Under the pieces are notes generated by a model. It was not told the DNA's origin. It searched no databases and saw only the letters and a program-made list of their open reading frames with translations. A stretch of 64,000 bases of DNA from Bacteroidia bacterium (lineage in GTDB: Bacteria; Bacteroidota; Bacteroidia; B-17B0; Aurantibacillaceae): assembly GCA_045805185.1 (NCBI GenBank), contig JBJMLS010000300.1, positions 10,259-74,258 of the forward strand, written 5' to 3'. The position numbers and the translations under genes were made by a program. Positions 51,218 through 62,783 of the stretch are shown here, in pieces; position 1 is the first letter of the stretch, and each line of letters begins with the position of its first letter.

Positions 51218-51760
51218 TCATGCTAATTCTTTTTCCCTGACACGCTTCACCGTCTTCTTCGCCTGTGTTTCTATTTCTTTTTTAATCCTGGAAGCCATTT
51301 CCTCCAGGATCTTTACCAGGTGTTTTTTTTGAGTAAGCTCACTGATGCTCCATTTCTCTTTATCCGCGCGCTTATGAGCAAGCTTGAATTTGAACCCGCT
51401 CATTTCCGTGGAATAAGTGTTGGCATCCAGCTTTTTTACATTTTGAGCGGCAAGTATGTACCAATGGTATTCCGTTCCTACAGGCACACCCGAACCTTCA
51501 GGGGCCTTTCCGGCTCTTCGCTTGGTGACCGCGTAGGAGATCTTCCATTCGTCGGGAGTTACCTTTGTTTCTTTCCATACGCCGCTATCGTAATTCCACT
51601 TATGGCTCCTGCCAACGGCCATTCCCGTATACTGCTTCCCTTCAAATTCCTTGAATTTGTTATAGGATGCAGCCCGGTCCTTTTTCACCGCTTTTGCAGC
51701 GCGCTTCTTTACTTTTTGCGCTGGCGCTACAAGCGCTACCGTTGCTCTGCGTTTAGGCAT
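51218..51760 (-). CDS. hypothetical basic protein with K/A-rich N-terminal tail
   Basis: 180 aa. Starts MPKRRATVALVAPAQKVKKRAAKAVKKDRAAS, then a globular-looking core. No family recognised. Confidence 0.55.
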   Translation of the reverse strand: MPKRRATVALVAPAQKVKKRAAKAVKKDRAASYNKFKEFEGKQYTGMAVGRSHKWNYDSGVWKETKVTPDEWKISYAVTKRRAGKAPEGSGVPVGTEYHWYILAAQNVKKLDANTYSTEMSGFKFKLAHKRADKEKWSISELTQKKHLVKILEEMASRIKKEIETQAKKTVKRVREKELA

Positions 51761-51912: not shown

Positions 51913-52620
51913 TTATTCTTCATCGCTTTCTACTTCTTCCTGGTTTTCAACTTCGTTCTCTACTTCCTCGTCTTCAGTTTCTTCCTCGTCTTCTTCTTCC
52001 TCGTCTTCTTCCTCTTCGGCTGCTTTAATGTTAATGGCGGCTTCCGCTACTTCAGTCAGCTTTTCATCAGCCGCTTTCTCTTCCTCGAGGATCTCTTCCA
52101 GCAGTTCCGCAGCATCATCCAGACCCAGTGTTCTTGCAAAAGTTCTTAACGTGCCGTAGGTCGCTATTTCATAATGCTCCACCTTTTGTCCCGCTGAAAT
52201 GATTCCCGCATCGCGCATGGCTCCTTTATCACATTCCTTCATGATCTCTTCCGCCTCCTTGATCAGGCCAGCCATTGCTTCACATTTCTTTGCCTGCGGT
52301 TTCATTTCCAACAGCTCAAATACCTGCTCCAGCTTTTCAATTTGCCCTTCGGTTTCTTCCAGGTGATTTTCGATCGCTTCGGTCAGATCTTCTGAAGTAG
52401 CATTTTTAGCCATCTTTGGCAACGCCTTGGTCAGCGCTTTTTCCGCCCAGTAAATATCTTTGAGCTCATTCTCAAATAATTTCTTCAGCTTTGTTTCATC
52501 CGATTCTTCCTTCGCGGCTTTCTTTTTAACCGGCGCTTTTACGGCGGCTTTCGCGGTTTTTTTTGCAGATGCGCTTTTCTTTGCGCCCTTTTTTGTAGCT
52601 TGTTTCTTTTTCATAACCAT
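51913..52620 (-). CDS. yciF: ferritin-like DUF892 protein, YciF/YciE homologue, with added K/A-rich N-tail and polyacidic C-tail
   Basis: The core KDIYWAEKALTKALPKMAK...HLEETEGQIEKLEQVF...AGQKVEHYEIATYGTL...EEILEEEKAADEKL aligns by eye with E. coli YciF, which has AAQKVEHYEIASYGTL. Confidence 0.85.
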   Translation of the reverse strand: MVMKKKQATKKGAKKSASAKKTAKAAVKAPVKKKAAKEESDETKLKKLFENELKDIYWAEKALTKALPKMAKNATSEDLTEAIENHLEETEGQIEKLEQVFELLEMKPQAKKCEAMAGLIKEAEEIMKECDKGAMRDAGIISAGQKVEHYEIATYGTLRTFARTLGLDDAAELLEEILEEEKAADEKLTEVAEAAINIKAAEEEEDEEEEDEEETEDEEVENEVENQEEVESDEE

Positions 52621-52818: not shown

Positions 52819-52848
52819 TCAGCGGGCTGACCGGAGTCACCCCGCTGA
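52819..52848 (-). terminator. hairpin between disordered-protein gene 2 and lipoprotein copy A
   Basis: TCAGCGGG (52819-52826) pairs with CCCGCTGA (52841-52848). An inner TGAC/GTCA pairing extends it. The position is the same as that of the hairpin at 54180-54212. Confidence 0.45.
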
Positions 52849-52882: not shown

Positions 52883-53770
52883 TTAATCCTGACGCGAGCG
52901 GTTGCGTGAGCTGGAACTGGTCCTGCTGCGTCCTCTTTCAGAAGAGCTGCTGCGATCACGTCCTGAAGAACGCTGGTTTCTTCCTGAACGGCTCTCCGTA
53001 CGTGAAGAACGCCCGTTAGCATTACTTGCATAACGCTGCTCGCCTGAACGGTGGTTGCGCGACATGTCAGTATCTCCGCGTGAAGAGCGGTATTCCCAAT
53101 CTCCTCCCTGCTGGTTCCCGCTCATCCTGTTCATGGAGTTATTGCCATAACCTCCGCGTGAAGAAGATCCTCCTCCGTAAGAAGAAGACCCACCGCGCTG
53201 TCCACTGCTACTTCCGTAACCGCTGTACTGCTGTCCATAGCTGCCGCCTCCATTAGAAGAGCCGCGTGATTGTCCGTTGCCATTTCTTCCATAACCTCCT
53301 TCATAAGAGGAGCCGCGCGATTGTCCATAACCGCCGCGTGAAGAACGTCCCATTCCCATTCCACTTCCCCCTTCATACTCATCGTAATCGTCTCCACGGT
53401 TAGAATATCCACCACCGGACAATTCGCTTTGACCGTAATCGCTCATCCCATAACCGCGCTGATTGCGGCCATATCCTTCTGTTTCAAAATCGTCATCCTC
53501 ATCTTCATAATTTCCTCGGAAAGAACGCTGGTTATCATATTCGTCTTCCTCATTCTCATCATATCCTGATCCGCGCGAATTCTGTCCGCCATAATTTCCT
53601 TCAAAGTCATTATCATCTTCATCATCGTAACGTTCGTAACGATCGCTACCATAAGTGTAATTGTCCTGGCCGTAATCCGACTGGGACTCATTGTTCTGGT
53701 TACCCCTGTAATTCCCGCGGGAATATGCGCCGCTTGAGCGCGACCCGCCTCTTTGGTTCCTTGTTGTCAT
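52883..53770 (-). CDS. intrinsically disordered G/S/R/Y/D/E/N-rich protein (hydrophilin-like), paralogous N-terminus to 54223-54951
   Basis: 295 aa from the ATG at 53770, starting MTTRNQRGGSRSSGAYSRGNYRGN. There is no hydrophobic segment at all. The order is an acidic-aromatic region, a SYG/RGG-type region and an Arg/Ser-rich tail. Confidence 0.7.
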   Translation of the reverse strand: MTTRNQRGGSRSSGAYSRGNYRGNQNNESQSDYGQDNYTYGSDRYERYDDEDDNDFEGNYGGQNSRGSGYDENEEDEYDNQRSFRGNYEDEDDDFETEGYGRNQRGYGMSDYGQSELSGGGYSNRGDDYDEYEGGSGMGMGRSSRGGYGQSRGSSYEGGYGRNGNGQSRGSSNGGGSYGQQYSGYGSSSGQRGGSSSYGGGSSSRGGYGNNSMNRMSGNQQGGDWEYRSSRGDTDMSRNHRSGEQRYASNANGRSSRTESRSGRNQRSSGRDRSSSSERGRSRTSSSSRNRSRQD

Positions 53771-53882
53771 AAATTGTATGTTTTTTTTAGATTTCCGATC
53801 AAAAGCCAAAGTATATGCCATTCACTTTACTTCAGCTTTTATGTGATTTTTCATTTTACCTTCATCCAAATGGGGAAATATT

Positions 53883-53910
53883 TTTCCACATAAGGGGGAA
53901 AGATTTGTAC
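53883..53910 (-). promoter_or_regulatory. conserved upstream element, copy 2 (TTTCCACATAAGGGGGAAAGATTTGTAC on the plus strand)
   Basis: Begins 113 nt upstream of the ATG at 53770. The near-identical element upstream of 54951 has the same offset. Confidence 0.4.
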
Positions 53911-54951: not shown

Positions 54952-55063
54952 ATATTTTTTGGTTTTAAAATTCGGGAGGGAGGTTTCCAAACTACATACC
55001 ATTCCATTTTTTTCCTTGTAATCAGGCTTCTGGCACGATATGACATATCTTGCTAGTTACTCA

Positions 55064-55465: not shown

Positions 55466-55550
55466 ATTCTTTCCTGTTCAATTTCTGTTCCGCAGGAAAA
55501 AGAGCGCGGCATCGCTTTTGAATGCGGAAGCAAAATTAAAAAGAAGGCTA

Positions 55551-55865
55551 ATGAATAACACAAGAAATAAAATACACAGTCCAGAACTTTTAAAGATCAA
55601 TATCCGGGATCAGGAAGAGCTGGATTACTGGATGAAGACATTTCAATGCACCAGAGAAGAATTATATGAAGCAGTAACGGCGGTTGGGCCATCTCCCGCT
55701 AAGGTTGAAAAATTCCTAACCGTCAATGAACAATACGAATTGGAATACTGGGCAAGAAAGTTGAACTGCAGTACGGAAAAATTAAAGCAGGCGGTAAACT
55801 ATGCAGGTAATTCGCTCGATAAGATCGAAAAAGCATTACGCTCTGTTCAAACGGAATATGTTTAA
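55551..55865 (+). CDS. tandem DUF3606-like domain protein
   Basis: Two repeats of the pattern (D/E)xELxYW..K(F/L)xC(T/S)xEEL/KL..AV..(V/A)G(P/N)S..K(V/I)EK.L. ATG at 55551; the track ORF starts at a TTG at 55518. Confidence 0.6.
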   Translation: MNNTRNKIHSPELLKINIRDQEELDYWMKTFQCTREELYEAVTAVGPSPAKVEKFLTVNEQYELEYWARKLNCSTEKLKQAVNYAGNSLDKIEKALRSVQTEYV

Positions 55866-56637
55866 ACGGTTCATGAGGAAACCCGTTTGCATTTATGTGG
55901 ACAATTCCAATATTTTTATAGGAGGCCGCAAGCTGGCAAAATTCCGCGATGAAGACCCGACCAGGTTCAGGATAGATTTTGCTAATTTTTTATTTCTCGT
56001 AACGCGCGGCACAATGGTCTTTGATGAGCTGGTGTGGGCGGGAAGCGGTGATGAAAATATGGAAGAGGTCTTTAACGGATTGCCGGAAGAAGGGGTGGAT
56101 CTCCAATTGATCCCCCAGACAAGATACGGAGAAGCCGGAACTGTTGACCAGGCAATACAGCTTGCCATGTACAGGCGTTGCCGGAAATACAGGAGCAAGC
56201 CCGGGCTTATTGTATTGTGTACGGGAGACGGGAAAGGTTACGAAAAGGAAAAAGGCTTCCTTTACGATGTCAGGGGTTTTATCGAAGATGGCTGGAGCCT
56301 CGCACTTTACAGTTGGGACTACATTTGCCACAGGCGTCTGAAACAATTTGCATTAAAGCATGGGCATTATTTCCCACTTGAAAAATACTATCAATTTATA
56401 ACTTTTATAAAAGGACGAAGGAAAGCGAAATCTTTACTTCCATTACTCAGACATGACAAAAAACAGCATTCTTCCGCCCCAGCATACCGGCACGCACACA
56501 GGCGTTTCGAAAAACGTCCGCGCCGTCACCCGGCACCAGGCCATTATTCTGTTCAACAGCGCAAAACAAAGGCTGTTAGACATCAATCATTGGGACAAGC
56601 TTTGTGGAACCGGCAGCGCAGTTTTTCAATTAACTGA
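55858..56637 (+). CDS. NYN domain (PIN-like fold) protein, putative RNase
   Basis: VCIYVDNSNIFIGG at the N-terminus and LIVLCTGDGKGY later are typical NYN/LabA-like acidic motifs. The start overlaps the upstream stop (ATGTTTAA). The last ~60 codons are R/H/P-rich and overlap the next ORF. Confidence 0.65.
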   Translation: MFKRFMRKPVCIYVDNSNIFIGGRKLAKFRDEDPTRFRIDFANFLFLVTRGTMVFDELVWAGSGDENMEEVFNGLPEEGVDLQLIPQTRYGEAGTVDQAIQLAMYRRCRKYRSKPGLIVLCTGDGKGYEKEKGFLYDVRGFIEDGWSLALYSWDYICHRRLKQFALKHGHYFPLEKYYQFITFIKGRRKAKSLLPLLRHDKKQHSSAPAYRHAHRRFEKRPRRHPAPGHYSVQQRKTKAVRHQSLGQALWNRQRSFSIN

Positions 56638-57073
56638 CGCGTCCGGGAAAGAATTAAATAATACCGCTCCAAGAGTTGGCGACCTGGTGCGCATTTCCCT
56701 GCCCGGTCCGGGCAATCCGGAGGGCGATGGGTATGACTGGGTACGAATAGAAGAATTTGAAAATAAACTTAATCAGCTAAAGGATGAAGAAATATTCGGG
56801 TTCAGGGTGAGGCCAACAGCGAATCCCCGGGGCCTGGAAAAAGAAAGCGCCCATTTTTATACAAAAACGGCCTCCAGTACTTTTCTAATCGTCCGCGTCG
56901 CCGATAAAGTAACGGTAATGGAAAAAGGAAGGAACGAAAAAACAAATACGGAGAGCGGGTCGCTGATCACCAGGTTGAGGAATGCCGCGGTTGCGGTGGG
57001 TGCGCGACTCGGATTAGCAAGGCCGCAATGGAAGATGCTGATCAAAGGTGTGCTTTTCGGTCCGCCTGAATAA
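56453..57073 (+). CDS. hypothetical protein
   Basis: 206-aa ORF with globular-looking composition. Its first 185 nt overlap the NYN ORF in another frame. No family recognised. Confidence 0.5.
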   Translation: MTKNSILPPQHTGTHTGVSKNVRAVTRHQAIILFNSAKQRLLDINHWDKLCGTGSAVFQLTDASGKELNNTAPRVGDLVRISLPGPGNPEGDGYDWVRIEEFENKLNQLKDEEIFGFRVRPTANPRGLEKESAHFYTKTASSTFLIVRVADKVTVMEKGRNEKTNTESGSLITRLRNAAVAVGARLGLARPQWKMLIKGVLFGPPE

Positions 57074-57648: not shown

Positions 57649-58092
57649 ATGGATTCTGTTTTAAGAGCCTTATTGGTTTATATTGTCCTGTTCATTATTC
57701 TCCGCCTCAGCGGCAAGAGAACATTGAATACGAATACGCCCTTCGGGCTGGTGCTTATCTTCCTGATCAGCTCATCCGTGGCTGATGTTCTTAAAGATGA
57801 GGATAAGTCAATTACCAATGGCGTTGTTCTTGCCACTTCGCTGGTGCTTATTCACCTTGCTTTTGCAAGACTGAAGTGGAACAAGCGCAGTATGGAAAAA
57901 GTAATTGAAGATGTTCCCACTCTCCTGGTAAAGAACGGTGAACTTTTGAAAGACCGGATGGAAAGATCACGTATTACAACAGAAGATATATTGTACGCCG
58001 GAAGAAAACAAAAATTGAAGCAGCTTCACCAGATCAAATACGCGATATTGGAAACGGACGGAAGCCTGTGCATTATTCCGAAGGAAGAATAG
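57649..58092 (+). CDS. DUF421 (YetF-like) membrane protein
   Basis: N-terminal TM helices with the RLSGKR motif. The C-terminal LVKNGELLKDRMERSRITTEDILYAGRKQKLKQLHQIKYAILETDGSL is typical of DUF421. Confidence 0.75.
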   Translation: MDSVLRALLVYIVLFIILRLSGKRTLNTNTPFGLVLIFLISSSVADVLKDEDKSITNGVVLATSLVLIHLAFARLKWNKRSMEKVIEDVPTLLVKNGELLKDRMERSRITTEDILYAGRKQKLKQLHQIKYAILETDGSLCIIPKEE

Positions 58093-60802: not shown

Positions 60803-61210
60803 ATGGGAACAGGCACGGAATACATTTATATGCTGGAAGAAGATCCGGATGACCGGATTATTACAAGCGAAACCTTGAATGAACTTGGCATTGGAATTCC
60901 TTTTTTTTATTTCAGCGATCCGGATGAGCTGATCTCTTCGCTCCATTCAGGCAAGCGCCCTTCTCTTATTCTTCTCGATTATCAGTCCGCTACTTCACCC
61001 GGACTGGAATTACTGAAGACCCTGAAATCATCCGGCTCATTCAATGACATTCCCGTTGTAGTGCTTGGCGAGCTTTCATTGCGGCCCATGATCAGGGAAT
61101 GCTACAGCCTTGGCGCGAATTCGTATATCACTAAGCCTTCCGATATACAACAGATCCAGCTTAAGATCAAAACATTTATTGAGTATTGGTTCACTGTTGC
61201 TGAGATCTGA
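60803..61210 (+). CDS. stand-alone response regulator receiver (CheY-like) protein
   Basis: Acidic pocket LEEDPDD, phospho-acceptor context LILLDY, and the conserved T/K positions (VVVLG...; ITKP). Confidence 0.85.
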   Translation: MGTGTEYIYMLEEDPDDRIITSETLNELGIGIPFFYFSDPDELISSLHSGKRPSLILLDYQSATSPGLELLKTLKSSGSFNDIPVVVLGELSLRPMIRECYSLGANSYITKPSDIQQIQLKIKTFIEYWFTVAEI

Positions 61211-62262: not shown

Positions 62263-62664
62263 TTAAATCCCTGCTGTTGGCTGCATTTCCATTTGAGCCC
62301 TGAGCCATTCCATTGCAGCTTCACGGTTACTGAAAATCTTAGTGACCACAGCCGGCTTATTCAGCTTGTTGTAAAGATCGCCCAATAAAGCAAGCGAGAA
62401 ATTATTGGTAACAAAAGCAACCGCTTTCATGTGCGATGAAAATTCCGCAGAAGCGCTCAGCTCGCGTACTTTCCGCGTCGCCCTGAAAAAACCTTTTCCT
62501 TCCGCAATCACATAGAACCTGGCCCCCGGTTTATAATTCATAAGCGCCTCTTTGGCTTCGATTGCGATGTCGATATCATGTGTCACACCTTCCTTTATGT
62601 AATATTCCACAAGGAGATCATCGTGAACATGCATGACATAAAATTCGGTTTCTATGGTCTTCAT
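62263..62664 (-). CDS. hypothetical protein, possibly STAS/SpoIIAA-like fold
   Basis: 133 aa from the ATG at 62664. The alternating beta/alpha pattern and size resemble SpoIIAA-like (STAS/SEC14-like) proteins. This call is weak and from memory. Confidence 0.4.
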   Translation of the reverse strand: MKTIETEFYVMHVHDDLLVEYYIKEGVTHDIDIAIEAKEALMNYKPGARFYVIAEGKGFFRATRKVRELSASAEFSSHMKAVAFVTNNFSLALLGDLYNKLNKPAVVTKIFSNREAAMEWLRAQMEMQPTAGI

Positions 62665-62783
62665 AAGGACGCAAATATAAAGCTTTCCATTGATATGCAT
62701 TCAGCAGAAGCCCGACGGGATCCGGACCAACTATTCGCCCCTATCGCGGCCAAAAAATACTTATATTAGTGAAGTAATAACGC

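Follow-up and report, generated by a model that had tools for sequence, protein, structure and literature searches.

The closest described counterparts of the gene considered here are enterobacterial YciG, YmdF and STM14_1829, small intrinsically disordered hydrophilins that depend on sigma-S and have been linked to acid resistance, motility and the formation of biofilms, with yciG heading the yciGFE locus (PMC5437024, PMC13689561, PMC6064147, PMC9262955). Hydrophilins are defined by composition, namely by a Gly content above 6% and a hydrophilicity index above 1 (PMC5437024). Bacteroidetes are rich in prion-like predictions (PMC6400439), and a sticker grammar of Tyr and Arg is described for FUS-family and other condensing proteins (PMC5704491). 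The gene in question, P0001, lies on the minus strand at 52883..53770 of a 64,000-nt stretch of contig JBJMLS010000300.1 from a Bacteroidia bacterium (hereafter the window), and its open reading frame (ORF) translates into 295 amino acids (aa), predicted to form a fully disordered hydrophilin. According to the explanation that we favour, at a probability of roughly 0.6, P0001 is translated into a disordered hydrophilin that stays in the cytoplasm, belongs to the YciG lineage, would be made under stress together with a DUF892 protein and would be protective through reversible self-association.

The composition of P0001 is far from chance. Residue shares are 21% Gly, 19% Ser, 13% Arg, 9% Tyr, 9% Asn, 8% Asp, 7% Glu and 6% Gln; Cys, Ile, Lys, Pro and Val are all absent, and Leu occurs once. 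With its Gly share and a mean Kyte-Doolittle value (grand average of hydropathy, GRAVY) of −1.92, the protein falls within the hydrophilin composition limits of Garay-Arroyo, and its highest 19-residue Kyte-Doolittle window reaches −0.94, so it is without a hydrophobic segment. Aliphatic content is 5-7%, depending on the start codon, against a genome median of 39%. This is the second-lowest aliphatic content among the 2,252 ORFs of 150 aa or more in the 3.43-Mb assembly, and all of the four lowest belong to proteins of the P0001-like hydrophilic type. Charges (fraction of charged residues 0.28, net charge −5) are strongly segregated when compared with shuffles (z = −8.9). A basic N-module (residues 1-27, net charge +5) is followed by an acidic-aromatic zone (28-135, −26), a G/S/Y/R/Q zone (136-222, +7) in which Tyr density is 9%, a bridge (223-252, 0) and an R/S tail (253-295, +9) whose 43 residues are 37% Ser and 30% Arg. 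The whole protein holds 4 RGG and 14 RG motifs, 21 RG/GR dipeptides, 9 [GS]Y[GS] motifs and 25 RS/SR dipeptides. The original prediction, which had described a 295-aa product of three compositional zones with no hydrophobic segment, was borne out in this respect, all the stretches it quoted being found in the minus-strand translation.

P0001 is a real protein-coding gene. Its frame has the best codon likelihood among the six, and after amino-acid composition is factored out its synonymous-codon score is 0.078, against at most 0.023 in the other five frames; the mean for long ORFs of the genome is 0.049 ± 0.017, and their 95th percentile lies at 0.075. The gene uses each of the four Gly and six Ser codons and five of the six Arg codons, and third-position composition is in line with the genes of this genome. 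By chance, a 295-codon ORF is expected 0.013 times per random genome of the same composition, and no ORF overlapping P0001 is longer than 94 aa. Codon usage had been proposed as a check on this frame against two ORFs said to be antisense, and it favours the proposed frame, both alternatives scoring poorly; the ORF at 53026-53256 does lie on the opposite strand, while that at 53131-53415 turned out to be on the same strand as P0001, in another frame. No tandem DNA array was found in the gene, only three degenerate SSRGGYG-coding units, and because synonymous codons are also varied, the low complexity is kept at the protein level and does not result from slippage. The missing array, the full synonymous-codon use and the degeneracy of these three units likewise rule out a recent repeat expansion or an assembly artefact.

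A longer reading is also available, namely a 312-aa ORF with its ATG at 53821. It was rejected, since this ATG falls within a promoter-like motif that is conserved, and since in a paralogue of the same genome (C28, described below) it is not in frame, and the start at 53770 (MTTR) is preferred for the same reasons. An in-frame ATG located 51 nt upstream, inside the promoter-like motif, is present in both tandem genes of the locus (53771-53821 and 54952-55002), giving spurious 17-aa N-terminal extensions (ORFs of 312 and 259 aa) and thus an annotation trap for gene callers that favour the longest ORF.

With regard to origin, sequence comparison supports P0001 as a KGG-less branch of the YciG lineage, on the grounds of its N-module, its promoter, tandem paralogy and a position upstream of a DUF892 gene. 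The tandem paralogue, P0002 (54223..54951, minus strand), is a 242-aa YciG-family protein with the same N-module and acidic-Tyr block and with three KGG repeats (PF10685, E 3.6e-23); it has 171 database homologues, and where a source name is given it is mostly 'general stress protein YciG'. The N-termini of P0001 and P0002 are 73% identical over 26 aa and 64% over 60, and the similarity of residues 1-60 has z = 10 against zone-preserving shuffles, none of 300 reaching it. The N-module of P0001 also aligns with those of the KGG-bearing proteins P0012, P0038, G028 and L117, and the pattern M-[TI]-T-[KR]-x-Q-N-R ... RS-x-ERDS-x-GR[FY] is common to KGG-less and KGG-bearing members. A recent gene conversion between P0001 and P0002 is ruled out, as their 5′ regions are only ~73% identical.

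The regions around the two genes are also shared. A proximal promoter-like block, GAATGGCATATACTTTGG (53806..53823, minus strand), is close to the Bacteroidota −7 box and contains the misleading ATG of the 312-aa ORF; the 15-nt core within it stops 36 nt short of the P0001 ATG, and the block GAATGGnATnTAnTTTGG is common to the P0001 and P0002 genes at equal offset. The corresponding 15-mer, ATGG[CT]AT[AG]TA[CG]TTTG, occurs exactly three times in the assembly, each time 32-36 nt upstream of one of three paralogous disordered-protein genes (P0001, P0002 and C28), and a wider regulon marked by this motif was rejected, as the 15-mer precedes these three paralogues only. A distal block, TTCCCCCTTATGTGGAAA (53883..53900, minus strand), recurs at equal offset before the P0002 gene and is a possible regulator site; exact TTCCCCnnTnTGTGGAAA matches were found upstream of P0001 and P0002 only. 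On the other side, just 3′ of the P0001 stop, a GC-rich hairpin was read from the sequence (52819..52848, minus strand), with an 8-bp stem TCAGCGGG/CCCGCTGA followed by TTTAAAAA. It appears terminator- or attenuator-like with a weak T tract, it is aligned with the hairpin of P0002 and it is absent from the list of the consensus scan. The hairpin after P0002 (54187..54213, minus strand) is intrinsic-terminator-like, with 11 pairs and then TTTTTTT. Next to each gene follows a small lipoprotein-like ORF, of 57 aa downstream of P0001 (52624..52797, minus strand), with a signal peptide, a lipobox Cys and an N-rich mature part, and of 58 aa downstream of P0002 (53982..54158, minus strand). The two are weakly similar, with a common [PN]YNHS motif and a mature peptide of ~35 aa, neither matched any family, and the lipoprotein-like ORF was duplicated jointly with the disordered-protein gene. 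P0001 and P0002 each represent a copy of a tandemly duplicated module composed of distal block, proximal block, gene, GC-rich hairpin and ~57-aa lipoprotein-like ORF. Outside the KGG repeat, common descent with KGG-bearing members is thus indicated by the N-module, the promoter blocks and the duplicated gene-hairpin-lipoprotein module, and P0001 is also located upstream of a gene of the yciF/yciE type (DUF892) on the same strand.

The repeat itself is missing. At least one KGG repeat (consensus about RGFASMDxExxREIAxxGG) defines Pfam PF10685, and a Pfam scan found none in P0001. A custom KGG hidden Markov model (HMM) built from 198 repeats gave −3.3 bits on P0001, a score reached by 60% of zone-preserving shuffles, against 46-55 bits for the repeats of P0002, and the 11 KGG-less members tested stayed at or below −0.7 bits, against 43-55 bits for true repeats. 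Two candidate remnants were rejected. Decayed repeats in P0001 had been suggested by a MAFFT alignment of RGGYGQSRGSSYEGGYG with a KGG repeat and by the likeness of 'QRYASNA' to 'RGFASM', but with the KGG model the protein scored no better than shuffles, and a 'relic' in the relative L129 (RGYSSVDRDD..RGG) had no match to it. In long environmental YciG proteins, KGG repeats are separated by D/E/Y-rich and S/G/R/Y-rich linkers, some of them, as in P0038, openly SYG/GYG-rich, and by this comparison P0001 is linker-type material plus the shared N-module only. Its composition had been considered unusual in bacteria outside the hydrophilin/LEA-like classes; this does not set P0001 apart, since the protein itself has a hydrophilin composition. 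Linkers rich in SYG/GYG or in S/R are common between the KGG repeats of environmental members of the YciG family.

Ordinary searches gave no access to the relatives of P0001. Pfam and NCBIfam scans matched no family at E ≤ 0.1, a homologue search against 5.8 billion proteins returned nothing at either E ≤ 0.001 or E ≤ 10, and an exhaustive profile search with P0001 and the C28 protein gave 0 matches among 1.84 billion representatives. Pattern searches, using the N-terminal alignment in genome contigs and P0001 in metagenome contigs, did match patterns, with no confirmation by tblastn, and a PDB sequence search found no chain at E ≤ 10. Since composition-corrected searches are blind to P0001, synteny was used to find relatives, and every DUF892 place in the taxonomic family, the only one contained in its order, was surveyed. 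The starting point was the paralogue on contig C28 of the same genome (called C28 here), a 285-aa protein of the same design with no KGG. Its gene has the 15-nt promoter core at −47 as well and immediately precedes a second DUF892 gene, and in similarity to P0001 the protein surpasses all 500 shuffles (z = 4.0; range in tests 4.0-4.5). Orthologues of the C28-type DUF892 (54-67% identity) were found at 15 loci, and at 13 of these a gene of the P0001 design, in 12 cases KGG-less and in one with KGG repeats, stands directly upstream on the same strand, against none of 15 loci of more distant DUF892 paralogues. The resulting KGG-less group comprises at least 13 proteins, P0001 included, from 12 genomes and six of the 11 genera sampled, and is restricted to one Bacteroidota order. 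Its members have 222-340 aa, a basic N-module, an acidic-aromatic block, a G/S/Y/R(N) zone, a basic S/R tail, no KGG and a place upstream of DUF892, all of which P0001 shares. The genes are thereby ordered as in the yciG-yciF-yciE stress operon of enterobacteria. In the three loci of relatives that were read, the disordered-protein gene is preceded by a promoter that resembles the −7 box, with the canonical TAnnTTTG at two of the loci, and is followed by a hairpin with a T-run and then by DUF892; orthologous genes in relatives also have hairpins at the 3′ end equivalent to that of P0001. Against a profile of 10 relatives P0001 scores 148 bits (z = 3.7), zone-preserving shuffles having 124.6 ± 6.3 and 7 in 1000 of them scoring as high, and its body (residues 61-295) is closest to L125 (z = 4.8) and C28 (z = 4.5).

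What the group has in common is mostly a pattern. When 11 members are aligned, mean column identity is only 34% and just two columns are invariant, yet all 11 follow one charge plan: the start is basic, one or two aromatic blocks of strongly acidic character come next, then a G/S/Y/R/N zone close to neutral, and the S/R tail is again basic. Against shuffles, the segregation of charges ranges from z = −3.4 to −12.7 across the members analysed, and Ile, Leu, Val, Cys, Pro and Lys are nearly absent, with 1-16 such residues per protein in the 11 members. In a proteome where K/(K+R) is 0.67, P0001 has 0 Lys and 39 Arg (P = 3e-19), and the other members analysed show the same preference (P = 1e-12 to 2e-23). 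Likewise, P0001 has 27 Tyr and 3 Phe (P = 1.5e-6 against the proteome), and the bias of Tyr over Phe is found in 11 of 11 members. Aromatic residues tend to be spaced more evenly than at random in every KGG-less member analysed (z = −0.7 to −2.1). AlphaFold2 gave P0001 a mean predicted local distance difference test score of 40 from the single sequence and of 38.5 from the 11-sequence alignment, with no secondary structure in either model, and the protein is accordingly predicted to be fully disordered. The KGG-less group keeps architecture and residue grammar while its sequence diverges.

Two observations made during the survey concern other disordered proteins. The genome's fourth very hydrophilic protein, of 299 aa (C314:12744-13643; L090 4745-5641, minus strand), is Y/R/E/D/K-rich with some hydrophobic residues, has no Pfam match and a different upstream sequence, and it was rejected as a family member on account of z = 0.46 and a different composition. 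In Flavobacterium (loci L031, L036, L039, L042, L051 and L088), another conserved disordered protein is encoded upstream of DUF892 on the opposite strand; it has 150-190 aa, is extremely acidic and carries conserved motifs such as 'RGYTVRNG(Y/H)(D/N)PN(K/R)PNPD' and, at the C-terminus, 'NDPR(K/R)F'. Disordered hydrophilins adjoining DUF892 are common in Bacteroidota, and across this phylum the disordered proteins that DUF892 seems to draw as partners differ in type of composition.

As for mechanism, by analogy with YciG-family proteins P0001 would be produced jointly with DUF892 when the cell meets general stress (stationary phase, water loss, osmotic or acid stress), and would protect the cytoplasm as a hydrophilin. 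It could self-associate reversibly through Arg-Tyr contacts and attraction between the acidic block and the basic zones, in response to changing crowding, pH or ionic strength, and the resulting state would be a condensate or gel, rather than a dilute 'shield'. Self-association is suggested because hydrophilicity or charge alone would be served equally well by Lys or by any polar residue, yet Arg, Tyr and the charge blocks are kept; phase separation of P0001, judged from its composition, is plausible. A bolder version, which we regard as doubtful and put forward as speculation, is that P0001 and its 12 KGG-less relatives are independently arisen bacterial counterparts of FUS-type scaffolds that would coacervate on their own under stress into a reversible protective condensate or glass and recruit DUF892, forming a two-gene membraneless compartment. 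The triggers would then be water loss, acidification or crowding, and the K/A-rich and polyacidic tails of DUF892 could dock onto blocks of opposite charge.

Several points weigh against the favoured explanation of P0001 as a self-associating YciG-lineage hydrophilin. P0001 shows modest order-specific similarity to its relatives (z about 4) and none by composition-corrected methods, and homology of the body consequently rests largely on synteny, architecture and the N-module. An exact look-up of the P0001 sequence found no copy on record elsewhere, and the z-scores for aromatic spacing are not individually significant. Unlike the other KGG-less genes, P0001 stands beside a different DUF892 paralogue (43% identity to the C28 type), and a small lipoprotein gene and a hairpin lie between P0001 and this paralogue, which makes their co-transcription uncertain. 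Furthermore, the set includes one other species of the genus, and in it no gene of this kind lies upstream of DUF892, so the P0001 gene is dispensable, and because of this and of the atypical DUF892 paralogue the P0001/P0002 module looks like a lineage-specific extra copy. Finally, condensation, stress induction and protection are all things that we infer from composition and from distant, KGG-bearing enterobacterial relatives.

Among the alternatives, the strongest is a classical non-condensing hydrophilin, acting as a dispersed 'molecular shield' or as an agent of water replacement and vitrification in the manner of LEA proteins and Hsp12, with the FUS-like look being incidental. It differs from the favoured explanation in the physical state of P0001 only. 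The hydrophilin composition and the YciG lineage suit it well, and a GRAVY of −1.92 with a charged fraction of 0.28 would favour solubility; on the other hand, such a shield would have no need for Arg over Lys in a Lys-rich proteome, for Tyr over Phe or for conserved charge segregation, and classical LEA proteins and Hsp12 are Lys-rich, whereas P0001 has no Lys. We consider this alternative possible, though rather unlikely. Alternatively, P0001 could be a stress protein that binds nucleic acids or other polyanions, its RGG/RG zone and R/S tail contacting RNA, the nucleoid or polyphosphate, and its acidic block serving as an autoinhibitory mimic. The 39 Arg, the 21 RG/GR dipeptides, the 4 RGG motifs and the +9 tail would fit such a role, and the intramolecular −26 block could gate binding, but the Pfam scan found no RNA- or DNA-binding domain, the charge of the whole protein is −5, and the conserved genomic partner is the ferritin-like DUF892 and no gene of RNA metabolism, which makes this proposal quite improbable. 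That P0001 is no coding gene, being a chance or relic ORF in untranslated DNA, or that the true product lies in another frame or strand, could be argued from the lack of database homologues and of exact copies elsewhere; it is very improbable indeed given the codon scores, the 0.013 chance ORFs expected and the shortness of the alternatives (at most 94 aa), as well as the syntenic genes of the same architecture that stay open in 12 genomes despite sequence divergence, and the conserved promoter-like motif with its A-rich leader. An exported structural or adhesive material, Tyr cross-linked into a matrix or coat like the G/S/Y-rich silks and cuticle proteins, is hardly credible: the G/S/Y-rich zone does resemble structural low-complexity proteins and small lipoprotein genes are adjacent, but P0001 has no signal peptide, hydrophobic stretch or secretion-type C-terminal domain, and its relatives are cytoplasmic stress proteins.

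The DUF892 gene (51913..52620, minus strand; PF05974, E 6.9e-60), downstream of P0001, encodes a ferritin-like protein of the YciE/YciF type, DUF892 being the family of E. coli YciE and YciF. The window thus shows the yciG-yciF arrangement in a Bacteroidota version, in which two genes occupy the yciG position. The DUF892 protein has a K/A-rich N-terminal tail of ~40 aa and a polyacidic C-terminal tail of ~34 aa, and the product of the gene beyond it (51218-51760, 180 aa, no Pfam match) begins with a similar K/A-rich tail. Tails of opposite charge in this neighbourhood could dock onto the charge blocks of P0001. A DUF421/YetF membrane-protein gene occurs near both loci with a disordered-protein gene and DUF892 (window 57649-58092; L089 4581-5165), on C28 directly upstream and divergent, and each of these loci may belong to a larger stress module, the two modules being paralogous. 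Elsewhere in the window, at 55518-56637, a gene whose product has two DUF3606 repeats (E 2.2e-30) runs into the beginning of a 278-aa ORF. The latter matches an NYN domain only faintly (E 0.043, which misses the cut-off) and overlaps the ORF at 56453-57073 out of frame. At a distance of a few kb, the stress cluster is accompanied by a stand-alone response-regulator receiver gene (60803-61210) and a SpoIIAA-like/DUF7793 gene (62263-62700; E 3.4e-18), possible partner-switching regulators of the general stress response.

YciG-type hydrophilins are widespread and strongly stress-induced. The lineage described here dropped the sole recognisable motif, KGG, and across six genera retained a pattern rather than a sequence; conservation of this pattern (charge blocks, Arg without Lys, Tyr without Phe, few aliphatics) points to physical self-association as the selected property. 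P0001 would thus offer a compact, cytoplasmic and domain-free bacterial protein for testing the 'sticker' rules of the FUS family, with DUF892 as a candidate client. While the hydrophilin class itself is known, what appears to be new is a conserved KGG-less branch of YciG hydrophilins with an Arg/Tyr grammar, restricted to one order and undetectable by ordinary sequence search. Related to this is a caution, as a conserved group was invisible to composition-corrected searches of billions of proteins and was recovered via synteny and architecture only.

In comparison with known systems, P0001 resembles enterobacterial YciG, YmdF and STM14_1829 in being disordered (by prediction), Gly-rich and very hydrophilic, with its gene upstream of a DUF892 gene of the yciF/yciE type; unlike enterobacterial YciG, of about 60 aa, it is 5 times longer, has no KGG repeat and essentially no Lys. 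Closer in design are long YciG proteins of Bacteroidota, such as P0038 and a 260-aa protein encoded downstream of DUF892 in Flavihumibacter petaseus NBRC 106054 (L079 6573-7352). These share with P0001 the D/E/Y acidic block, the R/G/Y/S zones, the S/R tail, an N-module of the 'RERDSxGRF' type and adjacency to DUF892, but they hold 2-4 intact KGG repeats (43-55 bits), and their similarity to P0001 is not significant after composition correction (z = 2.1-2.3). Similar to LEA proteins, tardigrade CAHS and yeast Hsp12, P0001 has a hydrophilin-type composition and a presumed role in water deficit; it differs from them in being rich in Arg and Tyr rather than in Lys, Ala and Glu, with no predicted propensity for amphipathic helices, and Pfam and NCBIfam gave no LEA-family match (LEA_1 to LEA_6, dehydrin, SMP) at E ≤ 0.1.

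With FUS, EWS and TAF15, P0001 shares Tyr and Arg 'stickers' (27 Tyr, 39 Arg), [GS]Y[GS] and RGG motifs in G/S/Q spacers and a scarcity of aliphatic residues, and a Tyr/Arg grammar with opposite charges kept apart reportedly drives the condensation of FUS-family and other proteins (Wang et al. 2018, Cell). Unlike FUS, it has no RNA recognition motif (RRM) or zinc finger, the Pfam scan having found neither of these nor any other eukaryotic-type domain; its context is a bacterial stress operon, Tyr density in its G/S zone is lower, and nothing in the low-complexity domain of FUS corresponds to its strongly acidic block of 108 residues (−26). The R/S-rich tail and the 25 RS/SR dipeptides of the whole protein recall the RS domains of SR proteins, from which P0001 differs in the lack of an RRM, of a long strict run of RS dipeptides and of any known link to an SR-protein kinase, and S/R/N/T/K tails equivalent to its own are common in YciG-family proteins. 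The eukaryotic FUS and SR likeness suggested by the original prediction thus holds for composition, and extends beyond what was described there to a family-wide bias of Arg over Lys and of Tyr over Phe, blocky charge and a tendency to evenly spaced aromatics, but it does not hold for kinship, given that no PDB, domain or homologue match was obtained. The likeness of P0001 to FUS and RS domains is one of analogy and not of common descent.

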